Part shown: positions 4,907-47,710 of the stretch, one piece after another
Layout: the number at the start of each line of letters is the position of its first letter
Position numbering within the stretch: the stretch's first letter is position 1
Source of the DNA: Takakia lepidozioides
Taxonomy: Eukaryota; Plantae; Bryophyta
DNA length: 64,000 nucleotides
Assembly (NCBI GenBank): GCA_030704615.1
Contig: CM060734.1
Location: 30,938,001-31,002,000 of the forward strand
Reading direction: 5' to 3'
Program-made: the position numbers and the translations under genes
Notes under the pieces: model-generated
What the model was told of the DNA's origin: nothing
The model's database searches: none
Seen by the model: the letters and a program-made list of their open reading frames with translations, nothing else

Positions 4907-5893
4907 ATGTCTTCCACAGACACCACAGGCACCATAGGCAGTGGTGATGGCTTTAGGGCTGGTGAGGTTGAATTGCAAAGCTCCAAGACTCCTTGAAAAA
5001 GATCTAGAGATAGAAATTGGAGTGAGACGGAAGTGCGCATCCTGGCTACCACTAAGTGGCAGGAATGGGAGGAGTGGAAGGGTTCTAATGCACGCGGCAA
5101 CATGAATTGCGATAAAGTCAAGTGGGAGAGGATTGTGTTGTCATTGGAGAGACAGGGTGTGCTTGGAAGGGATGCAACAAGTTGCAGCAACAAGTGGCAG
5201 AACCTCTGTAAGCATTTCAAGGATATTCGGGGCCACCAGCTTCATAGCTTAGGTAATGAAGACTACTTCACTATGACCACTGAAGAACGTGGAACTGCAG
5301 GACTCCCAAAATCCTTCTCAAAGGATCTTTTTGAGGACATGTCTTTTCTATCAGAGCGAGCTTGCAATGCTCCAAAGGCGACCTCATCAAGCATGAGGGT
5401 ACCACTGGTACCAAATCAGCAGCATGTAGATATCAACCCAATTGATGATGTCAGTGCTGGCCCTTTAGTAGCCAACAATTTGGGTTCAGCAAGTCTAGCC
5501 TCAGAAAGCCAAGATGAGCCATCTGTTCCTCCTCGGGGTTGACCTCCCATGCCAGGGCGGGAGAGGTACACCAATTCTTCCCCTACCCCATTCAACAACT
5601 CAACCGGCAAGAAAAAGAAGGGTGTTGTGACCACTGATTTCCTCAAGGCCTTGAAGGAGGGAAATGAAGTCCTTTCCAAAAGCATGGCAGAAGATAGAAA
5701 AGAGAGGATGGAGAGATTTGGCAAGACTCTTACCCTTCAAACTGAGATGTTCAACTTTGAGAAGCAAAAGGCCCAAGTGGCATTTGAAGCACAACAGGTA
5801 GCTTCTAGCAATCAAAGCGTCATGGTTTCCCATTTTGGAAAACTGGTTGAGCACTTTGGGAAAATGGTAGAAAAGAAGGATGGTGCAGCTTAA
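4907..5893 (+). pseudogene. Myb/SANT-like (trihelix-type) DNA-binding protein, the Harbinger accessory ORF, with two in-frame stops
   Basis: One frame from ATG 4907: RNWSETEVRIL...KVKWERIVLSLERQGVLGRDATSCSNKWQNLCKHFK. TGA at about 4994 and 5540. Coiled-coil-like C-terminus. Confidence 0.8.
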
Positions 5894-7690: not shown

Positions 7691-7959
7691 GTTGGTCACC
7701 GGTGGTGTAGTCGGTGCGATGGGTAATGCAATGATCGTGTATAGCTGCTAGATCGGGCTATCCAGGATGCTCGTGGCAATACTAGCCGCGTGAATAGTTG
7801 GTGATATCTGTAGGAACTTTTGGCCATGATCATAGCCTTAAGTCACAAGGATATAATGAGGAAGCGGCCAATGGGGTGACCACTGGAGCGGTGATTTCAG
7901 GGCAGGCCGTGGTAGCATTCTGGAGTTGTTCGATTAGTGATGCGGCTGCAACCAGCCGC

Positions 7960-9352
7960 CCAGCAGCGACGTCGCATTGTTCTGGTCTTGGGGACGTAAA
8001 GAACAAACACTTCATGGTGGATGCTCCGAATGGCCATCTGGGAATTAGGGACTGCTATGCGGAGTTTGTGGACGAGAAGGGTGTGTCTGTGCCTCTGAGC
8101 GATGTATACCTGCACCACTAGATCATGTACGAGTTCTCTGTACCGAGCAACGATGTAGACACCCATAAGGAGATGCTACTGAAATCTATGGAGAAGAAGC
8201 ACTCTTCGTCTCAATCCACCTCACACGCTGCCTCATTTGAAGGCTGCTGGCTCCGGCGTGAAGCTCTCAGCTGGACAGACGTTGATGCAGTACTTTGGTG
8301 TTGGTGCGGAGACCAGGCGCACCAAGTCAACTATCCCCGCGCCCTTTGCTAAAGAGACTGCAGCTCCTTCCCTGCTTGTTGAGGGCTACGAGCCGATATG
8401 GATTCTTAATGTCCACGGTCGTGACACACGGGGCGCCGTCAACAAACTGGGGTGCACTAAGTGTCGGTTGCTTCTCTCCTACTCTTCTCTGAAATCTTTT
8501 ACACCTGTTTTGAGGAAGTTCTCCACAGAAAGACAATGTGTAAGGGCCTCGTCCCCGCCAATCACTAAATGCCTTACAAATGGCTGCAGCCCGCAAGGTT
8601 TACCTTAGCCCATAATTCCCATTGACATGGCACTGAGCTATAGCAGACAACAATCCTTTACAGGGAGCTGAGTGATAAATTATGGGCTGACGTTGGCGTC
8701 ATTTTAAAAGCATGAGATGGATTCCAGTACTGCTCCTCCAGCCCCCTAGCTTATCATGTGTCGTGTTAACCCTTACAAATGAGGGTAGAAAATAGAGAAG
8801 AATCTAGGGGCCGGTGTACTGCCACAAGGTCTACAGTGCCTGAACGATCCAGTTGTGTTTATTATTTTACCCGAATTAGAGGCTACAACAATTTGCAGTC
8901 AGCTACTGGATTTGGGGTGTGATCTTTACAATGTGACTGTGGACCGCAAAGGAGATCCTTTAGCAGAAAGTTACCTGGGAGGCCTTTAGTGCTGCACAGA
9001 TGGGAAGCGCTGTGCTGTGAAGGAGGGCTTTGAAGGTGATGAGCTTGAGATGACCATCTACCTAGTACACATGGGAATATGTTTCCTGGGATGTGTGCGT
9101 TGAGCCCCTGTCAAAGGTGGTCATCGGGGTCACCGAATATATCGAGTACACTGTTGAGGGATGTGGCAACACTGATCCCTCTTCTCCGGAATGTATAGAT
9201 ACACGGGAGAGGATAATAGTTGCCCCTTTGGAGGTGATGTGATCTTCGCAGTGTCGCAGTTGCATCCTTCAGCCCTGGATTGTACTCTGTTTGGGGACGA
9301 TGGGCGTGTGATTTGCTACTCTCCTCCCATCTATGGTACTGGACAGGCGGCT
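7960..9352 (+). pseudogene. Stress up-regulated Nod19 (SURNod19)-like pseudogene
   Basis: Pieces translate GHLGIRDCYAEFVDEKGVSVPLSDVYLHH*IMY, QYFGVGAETRRT...WILNVHGRDTRGAVNKLGCTKCR and, after an intron-like gap (about 8465-8915), CDLYNVTVD...YLGGL*CCTDG.RCAVKEGFEG...IEYTVEGC...LFGDDGRVIC.S.PIYGTG. These are SURNod19 motifs. Stops, frameshifts and a truncated C-terminus are present. Confidence 0.85.
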
Positions 9353-9803
9353 GACATCAGATGTATTGCATCAGCGTACACCATTGTGTTGGTGAATCCA
9401 ATTTGGTTGGTGCATTCATCGATGGGCACCTGGGAACGGTGACTGTACGTGGAACCTGCAGTGAATCGCGGAAAAAAAAAAAAAAAACGTGGGAACAGGG
9501 AACCAAAGGAAACCAATTGAAAATAGTTTTTTCTTGTATTTGTTTCTATTTAAGGTCATATATTATATTTACAGAGCCTCTTTGGCCATATCTTTGTCAT
9601 ATGAGCTCCATTTGACACAGTTTTTGAGGGGATAGCTGTAGAAAGGGGAAATCTATCTATCTAGACTTGGTTTTAGTTTTTTGGACTCTGCTAAAAATCT
9701 ATGGAATTTTTTGAGTGTGAGTGTGCTATGAAAGATCCACAATTCTGTTTCTAGAAACTGTTGTGGTCTACATGAAAGACAAATCTGGGGATGTTCTCCT
9801 TGT

Positions 9804-10538
9804 ATGGCTGGGGGAAATGAGGACGTAATTGAGGGGCATGTCTCTTCTCTTAGCCTGTGCACACAAGGGGACAAGATTTATGTTTCTCAAGGAACTCAGA
9901 CTGATTGGAGTGGAGAGCAGTTGGACGAGTTGATTGCATACTGGGAGTCAGGCATTAGCAATAGACAACAAACTGCTGTAGTTGGCATTGCGGGCCTCAA
10001 TATTGCTTTGGACAGTCAAAACTCTATTGGAGCGAGCAGTTCTGCAACTGTAGGTGAAATACCAAAGTAGGTGGAAGCTAGGCTTGGAACATAGCCAAAG
10101 ACAGCCCCGGGGACCAAGGTGTTCAGCCACAAGGCCGTGGTGTACTGGAGCAAAGGAGCAGGAGCTACACAAGCTTTTGCAATCAGACATGGTTGCAGCT
10201 GGACACGCTCTGCACAAGGCAACCACGAGCGGGGGTTCATTAGCCATGACAAGTTTGTTCTGCTTGAAGGAGATGCAGTCATTCGCAACGAAGACACCCG
10301 CAACCGTCTCAAAGCTTTCGAGTTGAGAGACTGTCAGACCCTACCTTTATTTTCTTTAGTATTCAGTGAGCAGGAGATATGGGAGTATTGTTTTGTCTCT
10401 ACCTGGCAGAAAGATGAGGAGGGTTGGTTAGAGCGAGCTACTGTAGCGTGGGATAAGGTTAGTGGCAGGTTTCTGGATATAGATATACCTCCCACACCTT
10501 ACCATCATGCAGAGCGAGGCACTTTGAGAGAAGTCTAG
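9804..10538 (+). pseudogene. Unknown about 245-codon ORF upstream of the PBS (two in-frame TAG)
   Basis: ORFs 9804-10070 and 10119-10538 share a frame and are separated only by two TAG codons. The composition is protein-like. Confidence 0.45.
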
Positions 10539-11082
10539 CAGTTGATAGCATAGATCAGAATTAGATCTTGCTTGGTCGGACCTCTATTCTTCCCCTCCCT
10601 CTCTTTACTATTTTCATTACTTTGTACTTGTAGTTGCCAAAGCCTCTCTTGGTGGAGGCCAGTCAGTCCGGGTTTTTTGGGCTGGGGTATTCTGCAGGAG
10701 CAGCACTGTGGAGGGATTTTGGTGTGGGGGTATTGATGTTTTGGTTTCTTGTGTTTGGATCCCCCCCACACCTACATGCTTGACTGTGCGCCATGTTGGT
10801 TTTGTGTGGGCGCTTGCTTTCATAGGGATTAGGCCGGATTTGATCACCGGTCAATCCTAGAGTATGCTGTCGGTGGTGAGGCTGGAGTGATGACCAGCAA
10901 GACCACCAATGTTTCTTCAATGGTGAGACTGGGTTGATGACCAGCCAACCATAGGAGTTCTTGCGGTGGATGCAGGTGCAGGTGCTCTGAGCCACTGGGA
11001 TATGACTCTTAAATTGCAACAGGTGCCCACCCGTGTCACTATTAAAATTAGTACTAGAGCCTTATAGTGTCACATAGGGGAA

Positions 11083-12799
11083 GTGCACATTGTGAGTGTC
11101 ATCACGGAGTTACCCAAGGGTTTTGAGGGGAGTACGGCTATAGGCAGTAGCAGTGAGAGTGGGTTCACAAGACGAGGTATTTGGTTCAGACCACCTTCAC
11201 CTCCACTCTCAACTACTGTAGAGTCTGACACAGACCCGGAGGCTTCATCAACATGGGTGCAGTTTTCTTCGCCATTATTGTGGGACGACATGGAGGAGAT
11301 GTATGGAGCTACCAAGGGGCCTCGTAGGTACTCTGGAGCTGTGGGCACAATCGAGCTGGATGACTTTATCCAGGAGTTCGACAGCTGGTGTGATTTGCAG
11401 CAGATGCGCAATCCACAGCTGTTCACTCCATTCATGGCGTGGAAGGGATTGTTCCAGCATTTGGAAGGCCCGCCTATGGACGATTACCACGAATTCAGGC
11501 GAGAACATGAAGCAGAGATTGAGGAGTGGAGGATGTATTGGTCACCTGACTACGTCTCCATTACTCGAGGCACGACGCGACCAGTAGTTGCATCAGCACC
11601 AATATCTCCCACTGCCAGCACTAGTAGTGGAACAAGTAGTGCCGGTACTTCTGCAGGTGGTACCAGTTCAAAAGGTGTCACTACTCCTCCTACCACGACT
11701 ACAACACATGTGCCTAGACTCAACCCGGTGGTGGAGTTCTTCCAGGAGTTGCAGACGAACTACCAAGGCGTACGGACAGAGAAGCTGCGAAGTTTGCAAG
11801 ACTTCCAGCGCAAATCCAGTGAGAGCTTGCGAGAGGCCTACACTCGTATGAGGCGCTTGATAAGTGTGACCCAAGGGGTTACTAAAGCTCAGGCAGTCCA
11901 GTTCTGGTATGGAATTTTGGACAATGAACAGGAGAAGGGTGCGGGATGCAACCCTATTACAAGCGGCCCAACCCACATTAGCAGATGTGTTTCTGCTAGC
12001 TAAGCGGATTGAGCTCAACATGGTGGAGGAGCGAGTTGTTACCATTGGATTTGGCAAGGACATGCCTGCACAAGGCGCAGCTGCCAGCCAACAGGTACAA
12101 GGGACTGCCCAACAACGTGGTCAGGGGGGCAAGGTTGCCCAACCCAAATTCCATGGAGCTTACAGGGAACCTCAGGTGGAGAGGCCAGTAGCTTCTTTTG
12201 CAGGCCAACAGCAACCAGGGGTGGTATGTTGGACATGTGAAGGACCCCATGTCAAGAAAGATTGCCCAGAAAGTGGCAAAGGGCCGGCACAAGCACAGCC
12301 TGCACAGTTGCAGTGTGGGCATTGTGGCAAGTATGGGCATGGAGATGCCCAGTGTTATGACTTGCACCCTGAGTTGCGGCGAGGCCAGTTCCAAGGGAAC
12401 AATGGTGGCCGAGGGCAAGGTAGAGCACCTCAGAGAGGACGAGGTGCTCAGGCACGAGATGCAGGACGAGGGCAAGCACAGTATGGCCAAGGACGTGGAG
12501 GTCAGGGCGTTGACCAAGGCATGGCCAACCGGCTTCAGCAGCTAGAGCAAAGGCTAGCTGCCATGGCCACAGCTCAGGTGGTACCAGCTCCAAGACCTAA
12601 GGGTCCACCTCCTGTTCCTCCTCAGCAACATCATCCCGACGGAGGAGACATGGGAGGTATGGGATTTATGCGTGGGGCAGCACTACCACTAGTGCAGGTG
12701 GAGTCTGCTGTAGCCGTCACTCGAGGAGCAACACGAGTTCCTGAGCCACGAGGTGCAGAGATGGAGTTGGATTCACAACGTGGGGAGGCAAGCCGTTAG
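11083..12799 (+). pseudogene. Retrotransposon Gag with two CCHC zinc knuckles (one frameshift near 11925)
   Basis: YSGAVGTIELDDFIQEFDSW and LQDFQRKSSESLREAYTRM (Q-x3-ES-x3-Y-x2-R gag motif); CWTCEGPHVKKDC and CGHCGKYGHGDAQC; RG-rich nucleocapsid-like tail. Confidence 0.85.
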
Positions 12800-12805
12800 G
12801 ATAGG

Positions 12806-14026
12806 TTGCCTCAATCATTCATCTTGGCGGAGACATTGTCGACGACATCCATGGCACTTAATTCTCGCCCCACGGATACCGAGGCGGAGGTTATTGTGTC
12901 ATTGGGAAGAACTACACGTGCAGCACTGACACCTGCTGCCAAGGCTAGTGCAGCCAGTGTGTTGTTGAGGGTGGCCACCTCTATGTGTCAGGCCCCACTG
13001 TTCTCGGCAACCATGATTGCGATGCCGGGGGTAAGACCAGTTGCAATGTTCAGACTAGCAGCAACACTCTATGAGAGTGGCGAGGTCACTTCATCTTCTG
13101 CGGAGTTAATGGAAGATATAGTGGCAGAGGGATCCTCGGATTTGAGGGTCAAGACTGCCACGGCTGCGCCATGGCAAGCTGCAGCTGCCAGGTTGACGGA
13201 TCTGCCAGCTAGGCCAGCCTTTGAGCGCGCCATGGTAACACCTGGAGTTGTCTTGTTAGACAACCAGGATAGTATTTTCTCTTTGAGTGGACCGGCAGGC
13301 AAGAGGTACCAGCCATTGCGGGTTTTGTTGGACTCGGGAGCTCAACCACTGATGTTGGGCAAAGCCGCTATTGCAGGTTTGGGCCTCATGGAGGCGGATA
13401 TGGAGCCTTCTCCCTTCCAGATACAGACATCTCTGGGAGGATCAGAGCAGGCTCGGGGCATGACACGGCGTGAGTTGGCCATTAGACTATAGCCGGATCA
13501 TCCTATAGATGGCTCAGTGATGCGAGCCAAAGTCATTGTAACAGACGCGGTCTCTTACAATGTCCTCGTTGGTGGGGCAGTGTTGTATCTCATAGGCTTC
13601 ACCCTAGATTTTTGGGAGGAGTCAGCATCCTACAGGCCTGGATGGCAGTCAGGGGATGGTCGTCGTGTACAACTCCTTGTGACATTCATTGGGGGTGTTG
13701 CTGCTGCCCAACGGGGCAAGATGCCAACACTAGCAGCCTTCACAGCTGTAGTTAGTTGGCCTGGAGAGTTGCTGGAGGACAATGCCCATGCAGAGGATGT
13801 GCCACCTCCAGCAGAGCAGGATGACATGCATGGTATGGCGGAGTTGCCTGCCATGGTTGCTCACACTCCATTGTGGGGTACGACCAAGGATTTGCAGCAG
13901 GCTGCTGATAGACGGGTGCAACAAGCCTGGGTAGAGGCCTTTGTACCGTCAGGAGAGGAGGAGAGTGCGGTGATTGCACCAAGACCACCTCAGTTGTCAC
14001 CATTGGACACCACACCTCTTGTGTGA
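12806..14026 (+). pseudogene. Retropepsin-like aspartic protease region of the polyprotein
   Basis: RVLLDSGAQPL (Asp codon 13331) and downstream YNVLVGGAVL. Same frame as Gag C-terminus and MTase, with a TAG at 13490. Confidence 0.85.
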
Positions 14027-14890
14027 CAGTGCCCGGATGAAGGCATATGCCTTCTGGACTTGTTTGGCGGGATTAGCACTGGATTGGCTGCAGTGCTACA
14101 GGCAGGTGTACGAATTCAACGTTACCTACATGTGGAGAGGGATGAGACTGCACGACACGTCTCACTGCGCCATGTTGCTCAGTTGGTGCAGCAGTACCCT
14201 GATTTGTTGTCAGTGTCTACAGTTCGTGGATACCAACAAGCCTTGCCAACAGACATCTCCTTGCTGGGGGCGCATGATTTGGAGCGGGTTGGCCCTATTC
14301 ACTTAGTAGTGGCAGGTTGGCCCTGCCAAGGGCTTTCATCAGCTGGGTATGGCAATGGGTTACAAGACTCAAGGTCACGCCTGTTTTGGGAGATGTTGAG
14401 GGTCCTGCGCTATTTACAGCTTCAGCAGACAAACTCTCCGGCATATATCTTGAAGAATGTCCCATTGATGGGTGATTCTCGGGCCAAGGTGATGGCCAAT
14501 GTACATCAAGTGCGGTCTTGGCTTGGGTCAGTAGTGTTGCTGGATGCAGCTGCAGTGGGGTCACGGGCTCATCGCCCACGACTATGGTGGACCAACTTGA
14601 TGCCACCTGCATTGCTCAAGCGTGCATTTGATGGGGTGCAACGGCCACCAAACCTGACGGTGGATAGCATTTTGGACATAGGGAGGCAGTCTCAGCGTGT
14701 GAGACACGATGACTGATCACCTTTGGCAGTGGTCAATAAAGTGGGTCACCCACGAGCAGCATTGCCTACACTGCTCAACTTTCCAGGATCTCATGTTTTT
14801 CGGGATCACGTCGTCAGGTGTTGGGGCAAGCAATGGATCTCAATTGCTTGACCTGGATTATCAACTTAGCTATGGCTGAGCAGCGCAGAG
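14027..14890 (+). pseudogene. DNMT3-like DNA cytosine-5 methyltransferase domain within the retrotransposon polyprotein
   Basis: Motif I LDLFGGISTG, II HVERD, IV GPIHLVVAGWPCQGLS (Cys 14324-14326), V SRLFWE, VI YILKNV (ENV to KNV), VIII DAAAVGSRAHRPRLWWTN. After a TGA and a frameshifting deletion near 14808 comes motif X-like RQVLGQAMDLNCL. Confidence 0.92.
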
Positions 14891-15142
14891 TACGGAGTAC
14901 ACTTTCCTTGATGGTCTCCCTGCCTACCAAGACGGTACAGGCAGTGAGGACCACGAGGTGCAGGCCGCATCCATGGCACACGTGGGAGGTTCTCAAGGTT
15001 CAGAAGGAGTTGGCAGCCAAGGCGGCACTGATGGATGAGGTTAGGGATTTTTCTCGGGTTGATGAGGTCCTCAAGGATGGGATGATGGGGCAGGATGAGA
15101 CATTGTCACTGACAGAGGAGGCAGTGGTCACTGCTCAAGAGG

Positions 15143-17300
15143 TTGCAGCATAGCAATCAGTTGGGCACTTATGTGAAATCCCATGTTCCATCTACCCAAT
15201 TGGCAGCTTTGAGGGAGGAACTCAGGAAGGAATTTGAGGCTCGACTTGCCACTGAGTGTGCTAACAAGATAGATGAGGAGGTCAATCTCAAGTTACAGCA
15301 AGAGTTAGAGGACACAAAAGCTGCTTTGCAGTTGGCCAAGGGACATCTAATTGAAGCCGGCCTCGAGCAGGACCAGTTGCATGAAGCACATAAGCAACAG
15401 TTATACCAAATGCAGGTGAAGCATGAGGGCAAGTTGCAAGAAGTGAATGCACTACATACAGAGTTGCAGGCAGTACATGAGAGGATAACCATACAATGTG
15501 CTACACTCACAACTACTCTTGAGCAAACTGCATTAGAAGTTAACAGACAAGGGGAGAGATGTATGAAAGCAGAGGTAGAGATAATCGAGCAGACGAAACT
15601 CATTGTTGATATGAAGAATACAATCTGTCGCAATGAGAATACTTTCAAGCAATACAGACAGGTTGAGGCTGACCAAGAGAGGTACATCCTGGAGTTGCAA
15701 CAAACAGTCATGGTAAATAGAAATGAACTCTCTGTGGCTAATAAGGCTTGGAAGGAAGCCAATAATCTGGCTGCTGCCTATGCGAGTTTGGTTGAACCTC
15801 ATGCGAAGCGCATGGAGGCTTTACAGCAGCAATTAGATGTGTACAGGCTCACAGAGGAGCAAACTCTCAGGGGTGTCACACACAACTTGGTGAATAACCA
15901 CCTTATGCAGGTCTGGTTAGCACAAGGGCCGGTGGAAGGCAAAGCACCACGGAAGCTCACCCAGGGTGAGATGAATGAGCTCAGACTGCAGGTGCAGGCA
16001 GGTGCAGAACATTGCCACAACTACTATAGACAATGTCTATAGTAGGATAGCGGAGCTACATGAGGATGTAGAAGGCCTGCAGACTCAGGTGGATAACCTG
16101 AGCTCAAATATTGACAAGAGAGTCTTTGTACCTGAGGAGCAGCTGATGGCTACTTATTTACAGGCCAGAACTCTAATTTTTCAGTCTTCTTCGCAAGGGG
16201 TGTAGGAGATGCCAGTGGTAGAAGGGCCAGTGATACCAATACCACAACAAGTGACTGTGCAGGTAGCTGACCCTGTTGTTACTACAGCCACACCACAGCC
16301 TGAGGTATGGGGGGATGCTGCTTTTAACCCACCTAAGACTCCTGCTGCACGAGAGTACAATCGGGCTATGATTATGCCTTTCAACCAAATTCCTATTGTG
16401 TTGGATTTGGCTTGGAATGAATTTAGTCCGCCACAGTCGTTGGCTCATTACTACCAGATCATGCGCATTTGGCTGCCAGTGGCGACTAGGACTAAGGTTC
16501 TTCCGAACAATCGACCCATTGAGGATCATCACTTTGCGAGGTACTGGTCTGAAGCAGGTACCATGTTGAAAGAATTAATTGTCTTCCAACTTGTACATGG
16601 GTACATTTATACCAAAACCAAGGAGGTATCAAGTATTGTCATGGGCTGTGGATTATACTATGCTGCTTGTTTTCTGGCACGTTATCACATTGAGCAGCAG
16701 AGGATGCAATCACGATTTCTGAGTTATTCCAGTGGGGATCATTGGGTCTTACCTTCAGTGCCACCTCATATGTACCTATATGATGCAAAAGTTATGATGC
16801 AGAAGGATTCCCAACTTCGTTCATGGTTTCATTCGGCTTGGAACAATTTGACAACACAGAAATTCGGCCCTGACGATATTTTCTTTAAGGGACATGAGGC
16901 ATGGAAATACTTGCACTGTTCCCAAGTCATTGGCACACCTCTTACCTATACAGATAAGGAGTTCAGAACGTTCACTAATTTTGCGTGCCAGCGCTTACAA
17001 CAAGTTGTACAATTTAAACTTCCAGATATGGTTGGACAACATTGTATGCCACACAGGATTCCACTTAAAGTTCGGCCGTTAAAACACCTAAGGGGAGACG
17101 AGGATTCTGATACTACTGTTTCTTCAGCGGACTTTTTTGACATGGCAGAGGACTATGCGATTCAGATGGCAAAGAAGAAACGACGGGGATCTCCTATGCT
17201 TGAGAGGTTACCTCGTTATCAGGCAAAGGAGGGTCAGACATTTCCAGGTAGTACTCAATCATCTCCGTCAACCAGTGACAGGATTTGGGCTCACACATGA
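15143..17300 (+). pseudogene. Additional 3' ORF of the retrotransposon (coiled-coil N-half, unknown globular C-half)
   Basis: ORFs 15143-16042, 15975-16205 and 16209-17300 join through one frameshift and one TAG. Long heptad-rich E/Q/L stretch. Ends about 90 bp before the PPT. Confidence 0.6.
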
Positions 17301-17527
17301 AGTCCTTCACGAGACTCTCACCGTCAAAAGGGTGCTCGCTCAAAAAGGTTTGCTAATCCCAAACAGTAAACCGTGAGGACACGGCTTTTTGAGAGGGGGA
17401 GGGGTAAATGTTAGAGGGCTGCTTGGGACTTAGACCTTTTACGGGTTCTGTGGGGTACCCTTAATTTTTGCGCAGACTGAGACCAACGGGAGCCTTAGGG
17501 GTGGCAGCAGCAGGCTTTAGGGGGGTT

Positions 17528-17725
17528 ACACAGCCCGACACAGCTTTACACAGTCCGTCACAGCCCGACACAGCCCAACACAACCAGTCACAGCCCGACA
17601 CAGCCCGACACAGCCCGACACAGCCCGTCACAGCCCGACACAGCCCGCCACAGCTTCGCACAGCCCGTCATAGCCTTACACAGCCAGTCACAGCTCGACA
17701 CAGCTTGACACAACTTGTCACAGTA
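17528..17725 (+). repeat. 10-bp tandem repeat (CACAGCCCGA)n in the putative 3' LTR
   Basis: About 19 imperfect units cacagcccga/cacagcccgt. Confidence 0.95.
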
Positions 17726-18034
17726 CATGGGGAACAGTTATCATTGGCAGGGAATGACTGTGAGGGAACGACATCTGCAGAAAGAACGTGTTACTACAGG
17801 GATGACGGTTAATTAGTTAGGTGGTTAGAACAGCTTGCGGGCAGATAAGGGGAGCGGCAACGGAAAGAGGAGGACACTTCATGGGGAGCGCTTCTTGGTC
17901 ATGTAAGAGAGGAGATCAGGCGGAGAGCAAGGAGGAGAGCACGGAGAAGGAGGATGTCCACTGTTGCGGAGGGTTCTGGAGTTAGCCTGGTGCGTAGAAT
18001 GCAGGCCGGGGGTGATCTTCATAAGTCCTAGGTA

Positions 18035-20072
18035 ATGTTTGATCACGTGAAGCGAGTGAAGGATTGGACGACCATGGCCTGTCATGTGTATGATCCTACG
18101 TACCAGCGAGTTATGACTATTGTTGTTTGTGACATGCAGTTGGAGGACACAGAGTCCCAAATTCTTATGTGGAAGGCTCTAGTTAACGTCATGAGAGTTC
18201 ATGGTTTTTCAGATGCAAATTTCACAGGGTTCATGGCAGACAACGCACAAGCTAATTGGAATGCTGTGCGGACTGTGTTTGGCTCTGGTGACCCAAAAAT
18301 ACCAATGCAAGGCCGGGAACGCACTTGGCTTTTTCATTGGACCCAGTCCCTTTGTAAGCACACAAAAAATTCCATAAAATTAGAGTTGCAAGAGGAGCAC
18401 CTGCGACTATGCCGTCTATACAAAGATGCCACCACAGAAAGGGAAGCAAATGCCATGTTTCAGACTATTAGAGCATGGTGGTACTCCTCTGAGGCGGCGA
18501 GTCTGGAGGGGATCAAAGAGCTAGAAGACTGGTTGGGCTTTTGGCACTTCAGATACAGATAGTGGGGTGGCTTCATGACCGCTGTAAGTTAGACTCATAC
18601 TACCATGATTTTCAATTCTTCTTATATATATGGGGGTGTGCACCAGCGGCCTTGCTGTCCAGTCCAGTCCAGTCGAATGCTGCTCCACATAACAGTGGCA
18701 TGTGTGTGGCATTTATCTGCAGAATACGTCACTGGAAGACATTGCGGATATGCCATCCTGCAATCTCGCGGAGACTGTTCATAGTATGTGGATGGCGCAA
18801 TCCGGTATGAACGGCCGGAACCTTTACGTTGCAACTACAGATGACCTTATCCGCGCTCTTTCGCAACAAACAAAGTACCGAGACTTCATCAGGGGACGGG
18901 GTGCTGGTAAGGGGCCGGACAGGGCAGAGTTGCTGCTCAAGGCTGCTAACAGATGCAAGCATCCTACAAAAATGGCGCGGGCTGTTACACAATTGGAATA
19001 CCTTTGCAGTCCAGGCTCCCACATCTGGAAGGTGAGGAGAGATTTGGATCATGCAAGCGCAAACTGGACACCCCTCCAGGATCGGCGGGTGACTCCCATC
19101 GGTGATAGAGACAATTTCTCCATACCTCGTGTGCCTGTGCCACCCAATTTCGGATGTACTTCTCCATCTGTGGATGCAGGTTCTTCTGCAGATTTCGATG
19201 CAACATCTGCCACAGCTCCGGCACGGGGAGAAGGACGGACGCTGCTGCCGGTTGAGGAGACCGATTGTGGTGATGCAGTGTGGCACATAGAACGGACTCC
19301 GAAAGGATCGAAAATTGGTTGTTCTGCTATCAGGGCACTGCAACTAAAATTTGCAGAGGCGTTGGCGGGACTCCAGTACCGACATTCACAGGTTTATTCA
19401 AATATACTCAGTGCGGGAGTCTAGACCTCACAAGTTCTTCAGCGTTGTGTGATGGGGACTTGTCGGGATTCAGTCATCAGTAAGCCTACCATCCCTGTCG
19501 TTTGGTCAGTCAAGGTCGGAACATCTCTCTCCAAACAAGAGATAAACATGCTGGAGGATGCTGGGTTTCGACTTCCAGGAGGCCCAACAGTCCTAACACC
19601 AACATCATCTCGTGGTACGCCATCCGCATTCCCTACACGTCCACCACATGGGAACGACTGGCCAACGAAAAGGAATGGAAAACCGGTTCGTCGTGTTGAG
19701 GCAAGTGCAGATAACCAGTGCAAAATTGAGTCTACGAGAACCCTGCAGTGTCGGGTTACCCAAATTGTTAATGTCCCCCCTCCAGGCTATGGGCGGGTGT
19801 ACAATATGGTGACTTCAGGATCGGTTCTTCATGATAGGACTTATGAGATTACTATTGGGAATTTTCCTAATTGCACATGCCCGAACTTCGACAACACGAT
19901 AAACAGCTCCATTGGAAAGAGAGGTAAATTTGTCCCATGCAAACATCTTTACTACATCTACATTCACAGGATGTTTTGTGATCCTCAACGAGACACGTGC
20001 ATTCACCAATGCACAATGGGTCACAGTGACGTTCAAACACTTCTGCAGAGAGATAGGGTAGTTGACATCTGA
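18035..20072 (+). pseudogene. MULE-like DDE transposase with C-terminal SWIM zinc finger, 5'-truncated and disrupted
   Basis: FMADNAQANWNAV...RERTWLFHW (D...CxxH region with C to W), NLAETVH, and SWIM CTCPNF...PCKHLYY. Probable intron about 18584-18722. Several frameshifts. Confidence 0.8.
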
Positions 20073-20104: not shown

Positions 20105-21232
20105 ACTCCACTTTGCTGAATTACTTTGATATGCTCCACTATCGCGAGTTCACCAATGTTTCTTAATTTGTCCACTATTGGAAGTGAGACCAGTCACTCT
20201 TCATGGATCCACTTTGATCAAGTAAACCCAAACCTTTCCCCATTTTTGGGCTTTTATTTATTTATTTATTTATTTTAATTTTTGTCTCTTATCGTATTTG
20301 GTGAAATTCCCATGTCTAAACAAGGCATGGGATTAAGATGTCGTTGACGACATCTTAATTCGTGCTTCCCTGAGCAGGATTACAGCTCCCCCTATGGTTC
20401 TCTCCAGCCAATCTAATTTTATATGCTCCACTATCGCGAGTTCACCAATGTTTTAAATAGATCTACTAATGCAGTCAATCTTCATGGATCCACTTTGTCA
20501 AGTAAACCCAGCCCTTTCTCCATTTTGGGGCATATATATATATATATATATATATTGTGATTTATCTTGTTTGGAAATTCCCATTTTCAAAGAGGGCAGA
20601 GGATTAAGATATCGTTGACGACATCTTAATTCGTCATTCCCTGAGGAGGGTTACAACTCCCCCCTATGGTTTTTTCCAAGCCAGATTTATTTTCTTGCAA
20701 CGATTTTCATGGGTTCATTTCTCATGCTGAGCATTCGATTTAAGATGTCGTTGACGACACCTTAATGCTTGGTGCATGCGCTTGCTGATCCCTCACGAGA
20801 CATTCATGGATCCACTTTGTTCAAGTAAACCCAAGCCTTTCTCCATTTTTGGGTTTACATATATATAGGGCAGGGGATTAAGATGTCGTTGACGACATCT
20901 TAATTCGTCATTCCCTGAGCAGGGTTTCAACTCCCCCTATGGTTTTTTCCAGGCCACATTTTTCTTCTTGCAACGATTTTCATGGGTTCATTTCTCATGC
21001 TGAGCATGCGATTTAAGATGTCGTTGACGACACCTTAATGCTTGGCGCATGCGCTTGTTGATCCTACAGGAGACATGCTCATACAGTCCTCCATAGTCCC
21101 CTCATCTGGACAACTTCTCATCCGTGCTTCATCCAACGTTCATCCATTACATTTTTACGTCCATCCCAAATCCATTCATCCGTGAATGTATCATCATGCA
21201 TTCGTGCCACTTTGTCGTCATAGAGCCTGTCT
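20105..21232. repeat. MULE terminal region with about 135/270-bp tandem subrepeats and five palindromic motifs
   Basis: attaagatgtcgt-tg-acgacatcttaat at about 20332, 20603, 20739, 20877 and 21012, with repeated flanks (catggatccactttg..caagtaaaccc). Confidence 0.8.
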
Positions 21233-23512: not shown

Positions 23513-26500
23513 TGGTTAGAAATTAGTGACTCTCTCAACACAGGGCCCACTCGTGAGGTAGCCTCCCTTATAGTGTTAGTCAGTTGGCCATCCAGGTTTC
23601 TAGCCTTTCCCCACCCACCACTGTTTATTACTAGTTAATGCACCCATTCAGATATATAGGCTGCCTTCTAAGGGCTTTGTATTCCGGCTGTAGTGTTCAT
23701 GCTTAGTAAAGCACTCAGGATGTTTTAACATGGTATCGGAGCTTAGGGCAGCCGTGGAAATCGAAGTGTAGAAAGTCATTGTAGAAGACTTCAAGACTTC
23801 AAACGTAGCTCAGTCTGCTCCGTCGCAGATGTGTAGTCTTTTGTAGGCTCCGTCTCATTGACTAGGAAGAGTCAATTCTTATTTCTTCTTCTCACTAATC
23901 GTTGTCTCCGGTACTAACATCATCTCTGAAGATGTCGATGCCACTAGATACAGTCCAACACATCAATATCTCGGAGTCCAATAAACTTGTTGGACAGCAG
24001 AACTGACACATCTGGAAGTTCAAACTGAGAACCATGATGCTTAGATAGGAACTACTTCTCTTCTTAGACACAGATGTGTCACCTCCAAAGGGACAACGAG
24101 AAGCTCACAACAAGAGAAAAAATAGAGTCGTTTCTATCATTTGTATAAGGTCATTCCTTACATATAAGATATCACCTGTCCTAGGAAGATGTATGTGAAG
24201 CTCTGGGAGCTTTATGAGGTCATGGCCACTTCCAGAAAGCTGATGCTACACAATCGTCTTGTTAACCTCCGCATGGAGGATGGTACGCCTATGGAAGTTT
24301 TCATTGAAACGGTATCTGATCTTGTGAATCAACTTGCAAGATTTGGAGACAAGATGGACGGGGAAATGATGGTGGAAATGGTGCTCAATGCCTTGCCAGA
24401 GAGCTACGAGCATTATGTTCAAGCTGTATTGAGCCAGAGAGATTTGCCGACCTTGGAGGAGGTCACCGCCAAACTCCATTACGAGGAAACTCGAAGAGAG
24501 TTGAGGGAACGTCAACAAAATAAAACTGAAGCTCTCTATGTTGAGTTTCGGAAGATGGATGGTCCTAGCCGTCGTTTTAGAGGTGACAAACGAGACTCTA
24601 GAGCTTCTACCGACAAGAAGCTATGCGCCCAGTCACTGGGCTAAAGACTGTGCTGTTCCATATGATCAGGTTCTAAAACTTCGCTCCCAGCAGATCAACC
24701 TTGTTGAAAATGATAGCGACAGTAACAATAGTGACATATAGTGATGATGTCATTGAAGTACTCGAAGCAGCTTTAGCAGTTATGGAAGTTGGAGAAAAAG
24801 ATGAAGTAAAACTATCAGCAGAGATCACTGATCAACATTAATGGTTTGTCGATTCTGGTGTTACAAAACACGTCACAGGAAATTCTGATCTTGTGTATGA
24901 TGTAGTACCATCCGGAAGCTCACATAATGTGAAATCTGCTGGTGGGCATGCACACAATGTCCTTGGCAAAGGCCATGCCAGAATAAGACTAAATGGTTCA
25001 ATAAAGAAAATATCTGACGTTCTTTACGTACCTGGCATAGACGAAATTTATTTCAGTAGCTGCAATGACTGATAGTGGACATTTAGCAATATTTGAATCC
25101 AGAAGATGTTTATTTATAGATAGGAAAGACCCCACAAAAATCATAGCGCACGGAACTAGAGATAGTCGAAATGGATTATACAAACTAGATACGAGCAAGT
25201 TCCTTGAAAGTCGTAGCATAGACACTAAAAAACAGATAGAAATAAATGCTTGTGACGAGGTTGTACCACAGATAGATTATCCTAAAAAGACTCAACTTTG
25301 GCATCGATGTTTGGGTCATCTAAACTTTAGGGGGCTCCACCAGTTATCTGCTCAGCACGGGCTGCTTACTAGGAAAACATCAACGAAAGAAATTTCCTAA
25401 GGTAGCTCAATATTGAGCTACTGAGATACTCCAACTGCTGCACACGGACTTGTGTGGTCCTATGCAGGCACCATCACTCTCAGGCTCAAGGTACTTTATG
25501 GCCATAACTGATGATTATAGCCGATACACATGGCTGTATTTTTTGAGAAGGAAAGATGAGGCTCTGCAAAGCATCAATATTTTCAAAAACATGATTGAGA
25601 ATGCGATTAGAAAGACGATCAAATGTTTGAGAGCAGATCGTGGTGGTGAATTTATGTCTCATGCTTTCACTAAATATCTCCATGAGCACGGGATCCGTAC
25701 ACGACAGCTCAGTCAACCTCGCACACCTCAGCAAAACGGTGTTTCAGAGCACAAAAATCGCATTCTACTTGAACGAGCAAGGAGTATGGTACTCGAAGCT
25801 GATCTACCAAAGTTTTCTGGTCAGAAGTTGTGAATACAACTGCTTCTCTGATACATCGGTGTCCTTCAAGTGCAAATGCTGGTATGACTCCACACGAGAA
25901 GTTTTCAGGTACCAAACCAGTGACATATCATCTTCGCATTTTTGGCAACAAGTCTTTTGTTCATGTTGATAAACAATACAGAGGTAGGCTGGATCCAAAA
26001 TCCATAGTTTGCATCCTAGTTGGTTATGACATCGAAGCGAAGGCTTACAGATTATTCAATCCTACCACTCGGAAGATCTTTGTTAGTCGGGATGTGACGT
26101 TTATTGAGAAGATCCCTGTTCAAGGAGATGCGCCTGAAGCATAGCGATACTCTGATCCACATCGAATGCATGATGGAGATGATGATTCTTCTGAAGAATC
26201 AATAGTCCAACAAATGGCCACAATACCGAATCCACCGACTGCTCCTGCTATTGACATTCACGTCGATCTTCAGATTAACCCGGAAGATGATGTACACATT
26301 GAAGATGAGCAAGCAGTACCTGCTGAACCAACTCACGAGCAAGTTGTCACTCCTGTGCACACTATTGAACGCAGATCAACAAGAGTTCGTCGAAGGCCAG
26401 CTCTCTAGGACGACTATGTGAATGTGGTTGAAAATGAGGAACCTACAAGCTTTCATGAAGCTTCTCAGGTGGAGGGCTGGTGCGATGCAATGCAGTCAGA

Positions 26501-45503: not shown

Positions 45504-47471
45504 TAAGTACCTACACTCTCTGGAGTGCCTTCGGCACTCAAGGGTCGTTCGGATTGAGCATCTAGGCTTAGAAGGCGGCCTGAAGCACCACCTTTGTCAT
45601 TCGAATATGGGTCATGGTTTTTTCTCTATCTCATTTGTCTCCCAAGAGGACGCAACAAAAGCACTACTACAATACCAAGAAGTCTCGCTGCAAGGTCCAT
45701 TTTTTCCCTTTGACGCCAAACTGAGGACACATGGAAGGTGTTACATGTAGGCCAACAATGTCGGCCCTTCCCTTTCTTCCAAGCAGCTACCTTCGCCGAG
45801 ATCACGACTCACTTTAGCGTCCACATGGGTTGTATCAATATTTTTGAACCCGAGAACACTTTGGTGTTCAGTGTGGACTCTGATGTTGATTACCGAGACC
45901 TTAATAGTGACAACAGGGTTCCTAAGATCATTGTCATGATGCCGAAAGATGTGACCATTTGTTGTTGTATTAAACTGCCAATGTTGGGTGGGTTGTTTAT
46001 AGTACTGGTCCGGTTTTAATGGAAATTATAAAAGATTGAAACAAACTCTTACCACCATTAGTAAGGATTTGTGAGGAACAATACTTTGTAGTTTCAATGT
46101 GAAATTAGTGGTTCAGAAACTCAATAAATAAACACTTTGTCGGACACTGGCACTCCCAGACACATTTATATATACATTCATATCTTAAGCATTGAAAACA
46201 TGATAGCAGAATGGAATTATTCACTGCGGATATAAAAATGCATTGATAGGATGGCTGTCAAGGAATATTCTTCAAGCATTGTGTGTTTTGGTTGTAACGG
46301 TGAAGGCCACATAAGGCTGATTGTCCTCACTAGAGCGGAGGTCTCCGACTCTACCATCCTTGCCCTAGTCACCGTCGCATGGTGGTCTCTGCTTCTCCTT
46401 TGGTTTCTGTTGCCGTAAGGGTCTCGACAGCCCCCCCCCCCCCACCTCTTATGCCCTTGCTCATGATCCCAAGAAGGCCAAAACTCTGCATCCATCCCCG
46501 GTATTCGAGTCGGTCTCTCCCGTGGTGTCCAGTGATACGCCCAGACTGATGTTGCCCCCTAGGTGTCGCAGCCATTTGCCTTGAGGGCAGGGGGTCGGGG
46601 CACAAGAGGGGTTGTTCCTGTGGTGGGGCAGTGGCTGTCGTGGCCCCTTGTCTTGAGGGCAGGTGGTCGGGACAAAAGAGGGGCTGCCCTTGTGGTGGGG
46701 ACAGCAGCAACATCGGGAAATATGGGTTACGTATCCGGGAAAGTGAATGAGAATGTCGTTGGAGGGAACTTCCTGATGCGATTGAATCAAATCCATGTTG
46801 AGCTCAAGAATAGGCTGGGATTCAGAGATCGGAGCCGCCGATTTTTGCCATACCACCAAGTCAGCGTTAGAATAGAGGGGGGAGGGAGCTGATTGGGGTC
46901 CCTTGCCCAATATAGAGGCAGCGGAATCAGAGAATTGGCCTCTACGAGACGACCAGCTACGAGGCTTCATTTTACTCGCAGGAGGACCGGAGCGTTTCCT
47001 CTGAGCGAGGTTCCCTCTGGCATACATGACGAGAGAAGAAAGAAAAGCAAATGAGTGGGAGAAAGTAAGGGGAATGCCAAGTAAAAGACAAGGAGGGGGA
47101 AGAGACAAGGTCATCTGCAAATATAAGAATGAGAGAGTGTTAGAAACCCCATGGCAGCCCCCATCTTCATAAGGAGGGAGGAAGAGCAGAGCGGCAACAT
47201 AGACAAATTGCTGCCAAAGTCGACCCGCTGGCTCAGAGTGCCTTCAAGGAAGTGAATTCGGGTCACACATCAAGATCGTGTTATGAAGAAGTAGTCTGGT
47301 AGCATGCGGCGACACCCGAAGAGCTGGGAAAAAAAAAGACGTTAGAACATGATGGCATAGAGAGAAGAGGGGACAACATATGCTCGCTACTTGCTTCCCC
47401 GGAAGAAGAGAAAAATCCAAAAAGGAGGAGCTAGGAGGTAGGTCATGGTCGTAGGTCTTTTTTTATTTTTA

Positions 47472-47710
47472 TTTTTAAAGGGAAATACCTGGGAGCAACA
47501 GCTCATAAATCAAGCCCCTTAATTACAGTGAGAGGAAAAAATAACCTCTTTCACAGTAACCTCGCCCCCTCACTGCTGTCCCATTTTGATGCCTTCATGG
47601 CGAGGTTACTTTGAAAGAGGTTATTTTCTCCTCATGCTATAACTAAGGAGCCTGAATTTGTGAGCTGTCGCTCGGCCAAGTGTTTCCCTTTAAAAAAAAA
47701 AAAAAAAAAA
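47472..47710. repeat. About 90-bp-arm inverted repeat formed by two opposed SINE-family-1-like 3' tails
   Basis: aaagggaaatacctgg...aataacctctttcacagtaacctcgcc pairs with ggcgaggttactttgaaagaggttatt...gtttcccttt. T-run on the left, A-run on the right. Confidence 0.8.

Follow-up and report, generated by a model that had tools for sequence, protein, structure and literature searches.

A 64,000-nt stretch of the Takakia lepidozioides genome (CM060734.1:30,938,001–31,002,000, forward strand; hereafter the window, to whose positions all coordinates refer) was found to contain a decayed copy of a Ty3/gypsy-type retrotransposon family in which a DNMT3-like C5 cytosine DNA methyltransferase (DNMT) is encoded upstream of a conserved in-frame stop codon. 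On balance, the sequences of this bryophyte family favour an enzyme that is likely produced at the level of Gag, likely packaged, and likely to methylate the element's own new DNA. The window copy itself is dead and capable of none of these functions. Relatives were drawn from protein searches (proteins, given as P numbers) and from the best 80 of 168 metagenome matches (loci, given as L numbers), 79 of which collapse to 61 distinct copies.

A methyltransferase domain in a decayed Gag–protease frame

A single frame from 11870 to 14716 encodes two zinc knuckles, a protease (PR) and the methyltransferase, interrupted by stops at 12797, 13490, 14024 and 14714. The knuckles have the forms CX2CX3HX4C (12227–12265) and CX2CX4HX4C (12314–12355), and the methyltransferase motifs FGG (14063), WPC (14318), RLFWE, KNV (14453) and RAHRPRLWWTN are all in frame. 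Pfam searches of the window matched the methyltransferase to PF00145 at E 5e-10, whereas the protease (PF13975, E 0.067) and gag (PF03732, E 0.0045) fell under the curated cut-offs and zf-CCHC was not matched; all three were matched in relatives of the element. A preliminary description, made from the letters of the window, had placed a C5 methyltransferase in one decayed frame with the zinc knuckles of Gag and a DSG protease, and this reading was upheld by the motifs and by PF00145, although the profile search it proposed recovered neither retropepsin above cut-off nor zf-CCHC in the window itself. The arrangement of features is as follows.

9595..11289, + strand: 5' end (TGTCA) and leader, presumably with repeat A; TGTCA resembles the ends of relatives and coincides with a jump in contig depth
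11290..11928, + strand: N-terminal half of Gag in its own frame (PF03732 E 0.0045; 48–78% identity in loci)
11929..12400, + strand: C-terminus of Gag with two zinc knuckles (motif reading; PF00098 in L002)
13220..13700, + strand: aspartic protease, LDSG at 13328–13339, private stop at 13490 (motif, Pfam, relatives)
14045..14804, + strand: DNMT3-like C5 methyltransferase, motifs I–VIII, stop at 14714 (PF00145 E 5e-10; fold match to DNMT3A E 6e-10)
14805..15150, + strand: motif X and C-terminal tail behind the motif IX deletion of ~121 bp (alignment offsets, contigs)
15151..15159, + strand: conserved in-frame stop TAG followed by CAATCA, a CAR-YYA readthrough-type context (alignment of copies)
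15190..17370, + strand: long open reading frame (ORF) without known family, in pieces, a coiled coil and then a globular part (depth equal to gag/DNMT)
17391..17404, + strand: purine tract GAGAGGGGGAGGGG, the probable polypurine tract (relatives have a G-rich tract ahead of repeat B)
17405..17790, + strand: probable 3' terminal region in the position of repeat B, with a 10-bp tandem array at 17499–17733 and a candidate end ACGACA at 17773

Contrary to the preliminary description, the frame is not broken by point stops alone. The N-terminal half of Gag (ATG at 11290) lies in a separate frame, with a frameshift near 11928 at which an indel is visible against other copies, and LGQAMD (motif X, 14821–14838) lies in yet another frame, outside 11909–14716 and downstream of a deletion of ~121 bp at 14804/14805. 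This deletion junction is present in 59 contigs of sequencing run X1. The region from 14805 to 15150, where a polypurine tract and the start of a long terminal repeat (LTR) had been placed near 14890, is instead coding, comprising motif X and a C-terminal tail that extends to 15153; the first purine run of at least 10 after 14700 occurs at 15211. Within the methyltransferase PC is intact, ENV is mutated to KNV and motif IX is gone, and no reverse transcriptase (RT), RNase H (RH) or integrase (IN) was detected by tblastn within the 64 kb window, in agreement with the earlier view that the copy is dead.

The methyltransferase is of the DNMT3-like class, non-permuted and intronless, rather than of the permuted DRM or the MET1/CMT type, as the preliminary description had proposed. 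DNMT3A/B ranked first with linear motif order, and there was no DNMT1 among 57 profile matches. The stop-free relative L005 matched DNMT3A colinearly at E 1.5e-11, HhaI at 5e-4 and DRM at 1e-3, and a 20-sequence profile gave DNMT3A at E 1e-27, DRM at 3e-19 and HhaI at 4e-10. The predicted fold (predicted local distance difference test, pLDDT, 73.6) returned DNMT3A/B/C in all of the 40 matches listed, the best solved match being DNMT3A. Identity to animal DNMT3 is 22–28%, versus 69–73% to copies in transposable elements (TEs). No relative was found in prokaryote genomes, and viral contigs yielded distant methyltransferases only (best E 1e-14).

A multi-copy family in land plants

A protein search with the window methyltransferase returned 39 longer proteins, among them 20 Marchantia models, two from Calypogeia and two from Sphagnum. 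Among named organisms, Calypogeia (70%) and Marchantia (as much as 70% across the whole query) supply the nearest relatives. The element belongs to a multi-copy land-plant family, as had been suspected. RT and integrase lie downstream in 26 of the 61 distinct copies and RT without integrase in 19, with neither in 16, many of the contigs being short. L002 carries zf-CCHC, DNMT, RT, RNase H and integrase, its 2,068 codons from gag into integrase forming one frame with two stops, one of which is the conserved TAG-CAACCA described below. L021 additionally has a PHD finger, and the fuller order in relatives is gag-zf-PR-DNMT-stop-RT-RH-IN-PHD. Fuller copies reading PR-DNMT-RT-RH-IN, which the preliminary description had proposed to look for, were found among relatives, and the linkage of the methyltransferase to gag, protease and RT is no one-off. 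Its placement between protease and RT agrees with the domain order of these relatives; its description as an ordinary Pol domain is not supported, since the conserved stop separates DNMT from RT.

A census of domain order covered 186 proteins, with species names taken from 20 representatives. DNMT precedes RT/RNase H in 12 and follows it in 55; it follows the protease without RT in 31 and precedes integrase without RT in 10, and the remaining 78 were uninformative. The PR-DNMT order occurs in Closterium, Mesostigma and Klebsormidium as well as in Marchantia, Calypogeia and Sphagnum, and the RH-DNMT-IN order in Scenedesmus, Chromochloris, Haematococcus, Monoraphidium and Cymbomonas. Five chlorophyte elements with DNMT between RNase H and integrase (P0038, P0048, P0226, P0227 and P0264; P0038 also has a G-patch) were noted separately, and a literature search found no description of elements of this kind.

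Trees were built by a quick method with Shimodaira–Hasegawa-like approximate likelihood ratio test (SH-aLRT) support only, the domain trees being unrooted and host DNMT3 not among the sequences. The window falls within a 22-row group (SH-aLRT 99) that contains all named bryophyte copies, and L005 clusters with two Sphagnum proteins. For the 28 elements with both domains, the RT tree and the DNMT tree each split the two domain orders at SH-aLRT 99, which at the level of sequence indicates that DNMT and RT descended jointly. The closest relatives of the methyltransferase domain are all of TE type, from algae to mosses. Klebsormidium P0160 lies inside a 58-row group (100, only versus Prorocentrum) on a long branch whose position is unresolved in this tree without host DNMT3. 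No host DNMT3 was recognisable among the 150 listed of 3,194 representatives, and none came from a separate profile search that covered proteins of 2,031–5,000 residues. One ancient acquisition is the simplest reading, and horizontal spread among green algae is also possible. A protein of a different kind, P0273 (4,902 aa), is LINE-like, with an endonuclease, RT, PF12237 (PCIF1-type), a C5 DNMT related to the clade, and RNase H, so that methyltransferases of two kinds may be combined in it.

A conserved stop codon between DNMT and RT

An in-frame stop ~100–115 codons past motif X recurs in the window, in L002 and across the loci. Of the 61 distinct copies, 41 could be aligned at the site, and 39 of these have the stop, as TAG in 28 and TAA in 11; the two misses are misaligned and have it as well. 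In a longer alignment 37 of 38 copies have the stop, whereas any other of 710 DNMT–RT codons is a stop in no more than 11 of 40 (27.5%), and any of 891 gag–PR codons in no more than 9 of 33. From gag to DNMT there is no further conserved stop, from which Gag-PR-DNMT is inferred as the major product; since the stop follows DNMT, this domain groups with Gag and would be produced in amounts like those of Gag. Four proteins, from Marchantia, Calypogeia and one further source, end 94–100 residues past motif X, as does L005, and the gene models P0007 and P0036 splice across the stop site.

The six bases past the stop are CAATCA in the window, L058, L061, L069, L072 and L075, and CAACCA in L002 and L040, with L063 and L076 decayed past the stop. 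The background frequency of an exact CAR-YYA is 42 in 11,657 TAGs. CAA directly follows the stop in all four lineages, and the reading frame is kept downstream in L002 and others. A shared RNA structure 3' of the stop was not evident in four single folds (without shuffle control). Readthrough serves gag-pol expression in MuLV and reportedly occurs in SIRE1. Among plant viruses, tobacco mosaic virus uses the CAR-YYA context to direct readthrough (PMC4132726, PMC2194720), and in it an in-frame UAG followed by CAA-YYA likewise lies upstream of the polymerase. The bryophyte stop is by its sequence a candidate site of this kind, and it follows Gag-PR-DNMT instead of Gag.

Extent, ends and repeat layout

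The extent of the element was taken from the summed contig depth of sequencing runs X1, X5, X6 and X9, which is not a copy number; X1 is possibly the source of the window itself. In X1 the depth is 1,070–1,810 over 8000–9603, 270,000–790,000 over 9604–18024 and 2,200–50,500 beyond. The same step is seen in X5 and X6 and is absent in X9, which may be an RNA run, the repeat being present in four runs of four studies. The step marks a high-copy repeat, and the element spans about 9595 to about 17790, larger than first described, with the 3' end placed tentatively near 17770–17800. The distance from the 5' end to the gag match is ~1.66 kb in the window versus ~1.5 kb in L005, L021 and L054.

Split direct repeats in the order A...B-A-B were complete in 5 of 24 self-compared loci, with A...B only in 4 more, and no internal repeat was seen on comparison of the window copy. 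Nine relatives with both ends have TG..CA termini (or a decayed variant) and 4-bp target duplications, of which seven are exact and two have one mismatch, as read by eye. These duplications and ends are the footprint of a DDE integrase. A G-rich tract lies ahead of B1 in relatives, and the B1/A2 junction consists of CA and TG, in most cases with two bases between them, which resembles joined integrase ends. A tyrosine recombinase, the hallmark of DIRS/Ngaro elements, was not found in relatives, which carry rve and H2C2 integrase with PHD together with the target duplications. Two matching LTRs were not found in the self-compared loci. The tRNA primer-binding site that had been reported also failed to appear, with none of a limited set of nine tRNA-complement motifs matching at <2 mismatches in 9500–11320 and no TGG after the 5' repeat A1 in eight relative loci; no tRNA genes were found in the window. 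A self-priming complementarity scan of L074 gave two 11-mers. Given its split repeats, the lack of a matching LTR pair and the lack of a visible tRNA primer site, the element is not of the canonical LTR type, and LTR-finding programs would likely miss the family. The family shows that an element with a DDE integrase can operate with split repeats and without a visible tRNA primer site.

Rearranged copies were also observed. Inverted internal duplications, consisting of reverse-strand DNMT/PR pieces or of repeat A, are present in L067, L069, L075, L013 and L018, and repeat B is inverted upstream of gag in L010 (6211–6326) and L016 (6221–6336). The observed/expected ratio of CpG in the element (0.45) is like that of the rest of the window (0.23–0.75) and so gives no pointer to self-methylation; CpG is depleted and CHG is not, unlike in three Sphagnum-like loci.

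An ORF in place of RT to PHD

In the window copy the stop leads into a short remnant of the linker and then into an unrelated ORF of ~730 codons in pieces, followed by the purine tract. This ORF occupies the place of RT-RH-IN-PHD in relatives. Its depth equals that of gag/DNMT, and contigs of other copies have sense codons at two of its stops. No homologue was found in Pfam, viral contigs or the 80 loci, an Atlas search gave weak coiled-coil matches only, and a single-sequence fold reached a pLDDT of 37.5. None of the 24 loose contig ends listed (1,763 others exist) showed a junction near 15190. Either full-length copies carry the ORF after PHD and the window copy lost RT to PHD, or the ORF marks a subfamily without RT that keeps Gag-PR-DNMT; the two are about even.

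Proposed expression and role of the methyltransferase

Most ribosomes would stop at the UAG to yield Gag-PR-DNMT, and a few percent would read through in the CAR-YYA context to yield RT-RH-IN-PHD, a scheme that the sequences make quite probable. Readthrough at this level would set a high ratio of DNMT to RT. Whether the later steps follow is evenly poised: the protease would release DNMT inside the particle, cytosines of the cDNA would be methylated before integration, and the new insert would arrive pre-marked like host chromatin. The PHD finger of the integrase may help to choose the insertion site. A wider history, in which a Ty3 lineage took up DNMT3 before chlorophytes and streptophytes diverged, retained it as far as land plants, shifted its place in the polyprotein and, among bryophytes, set it before a leaky stop that loads every particle with a pre-methylating enzyme, while the high-copy subfamily of the window host dropped RT and integrase for an ORF without known family and kept Gag-PR-DNMT, is conceivable but unlikely in its entirety.

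Several observations weigh against readthrough and pre-methylation. The bases past the stop are CAACCC, not CAR-YYA, in 33 of 41 copies (the largest subfamily), in most cases with an in-frame ATG after them, and TAA takes the place of TAG at 11 of the 39 stops. The 38 aligned copies are mostly of one subfamily and represent about four independent lineages, and the Marchantia stop is known from protein ends. Closterium P0066, as well as P0070 and P0235, has DNMT and RT in one ORF with no stop, so bulk expression is not required family-wide. A comparable gag-pol stop, that of Tca2, gave no readthrough in the reporters described. The failure of the Klebsormidium enzyme to methylate yeast DNA, the scarcity of stop-free DNMT domains and the higher dN/dS within subfamilies, all given below, weigh on the same side. 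Expression of Pol from the same stop-bearing element by reinitiation at an ATG close by, from an internal promoter or through splicing, with DNMT still linked to Gag, draws on that precedent for Pol without stop readthrough and on the in-frame ATG that lies six bases past the stop, in the context CAACCC, in most main-subfamily copies. However, the window, L002, L054 and L058-type copies lack such an ATG, and the frame kept across the stop in L002 and others and the CAA shared by all four lineages also argue against this route, which is regarded as quite improbable.

It is also rather unlikely, if less so, that the DNMT is kept for another job, acting on RNA, on host chromatin or on the promoter of the element itself, or binding DNA as a module without catalysis. 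In yeast, the Klebsormidium enzyme gave no DNA methylation, a result its authors call inconclusive, and RNA methylation and self-limitation are among the possible roles they list (de Mendoza et al., PMC5890265); moreover, the amounts of DNMT expected at Gag level would exceed the need of one cDNA, and the domain changed position between lineages. Against this, PC, ENV and motifs I, IX and X are maintained across the family and intact in many relatives, which argues for catalysis, and de novo CG methylation in yeast was shown for the related SymbioDIRS-Dnmt3 enzymes (PMC5890265). The ratio of nonsynonymous to synonymous substitution (dN/dS) of DNMT is 0.13–0.19 in the four deep pairs with estimable dS, similar to that of the protease, at dS values that are near saturation; within subfamilies it is 0.29–0.92, as expected of decayed copies, and stop-free full-length DNMT domains number just 3 of 42 in the loci. 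From these sequences the DNMT is judged to be under purifying selection across the family. A recent capture or retrocopy of a host DNMT3 into one element, or chance nesting, is largely refuted and very improbable, even though a processed retrocopy of a host gene (SURNod19) adjoins the element in the window and the trees were made without host DNMT3: the PR-DNMT linkage is common to liverworts, Sphagnum and streptophyte algae as listed above, the DNMT and RT trees agree, and the enzyme is far closer to TE copies than to animal DNMT3. Least credible is algal or bacterial contamination or an assembly artefact. Algal relatives of the element exist, but its closest named relatives are liverwort and Sphagnum copies, prokaryote genomes hold none, phage methyltransferases are distant, the flanks carry plant-type families covered in the same runs, and the repeat recurs across all four studies.

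Surroundings of the element

A processed pseudogene of the SURNod19 family lies upstream (7825–9490), with stops and a poly-A at 9474–9488; it has an insertion of ~450 bp (8465–8916) that is skipped by one X9 contig. Further upstream, a Myb/SANT-like domain (4997–5542, PF13837 E 5e-7) possibly derives from a Harbinger element. Downstream, decayed ORFs at 18032–20072 have a weak SWIM finger (E 0.04) and by eye resemble a Mutator-type transposase. They are followed by three tandem units of ~273 bp (20122–21076) that contain a near-palindrome in both orientations, and by copia-type fragments of gag (PF14223 E 7e-23) and integrase (PF00665 E 8e-12) at 24168–25833. Nested inverted repeats across ~250 bp at 47458–47710 are hairpin-like or resemble a miniature inverted-repeat transposable element.

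Relation to known elements and implications

REM1 is one of the PHD-bearing Gypsy elements of green algae. Gypsy-7a_cRei (PMC9940879) is another and shares the Ty3 domain set with a PHD finger, with no methyltransferase listed for it. The closest precedent is KnitGypsy-Dnmt3 of Klebsormidium nitens, likewise an intronless, non-permuted DNMT3-like domain in a Ty3/gypsy polyprotein, with DIRS-like repeats in the A...B-A-B layout and under purifying selection (PMC5890265). It differs in that its authors describe DNMT and RT in one ORF, where the bryophyte family has a conserved stop between them, and in having an algal rather than a land-plant host; Marchantia is absent from the main text and species table of that paper. 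Klebsormidium P0160 (GAQ93235.1) has the gag-zf-PR-DNMT order of the window and is possibly the named KnitGypsy-Dnmt3. In SymbioDIRS-Dnmt3, too, a retroelement with A/B split repeats carries a DNMT3-like domain, but DIRS elements use a tyrosine recombinase, in contrast to the DDE integrase with PHD and 4-bp target duplications of the present family. The preliminary description had given the Symbiodinium TE enzyme as DNMT5; the enzymes of de Mendoza 2018 are SymbioDIRS-Dnmt3 and SymbioLINE-Dnmt, and DNMT5 there is a host gene (PMC5890265). TE-borne DNMT3s have been reported in 'streptophytes' (PMC12344493). Host plant DNMT3 is of the same enzyme class with linear motif order, and in moss the host enzyme PpDNMT3b methylates both CG and CHH de novo (Yaari et al. 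2019, PMC6453930). Host genes are multi-exonic and cluster with animal DNMT3 apart from the TE clade, whereas the window enzyme is intronless within a polyprotein. A search of largely open literature, without Repbase, found no description of the family in land plants, nor of the conserved stop. The kind of element is already known from KnitGypsy-Dnmt3, and the land-plant variant and the conserved DNMT–RT stop are new within the literature searched.

What methyltransferases borne by retrotransposons do has been a standing question since 2018, with known hosts that are difficult to work with. Marchantia polymorpha has copies whose motifs are intact, and these bring the question into a genetic model, in which the conserved stop predicts methyltransferase at Gag levels and polymerase at a few percent. 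Some Marchantia gene models, Mp4g09160 and Mp8g17980 among them, represent copies of the element and can inflate counts of host DNMTs. Were the wider history outlined above to hold, elements of this kind would contribute de novo methylation in Marchantia and Sphagnum from a source so far unrecognised.

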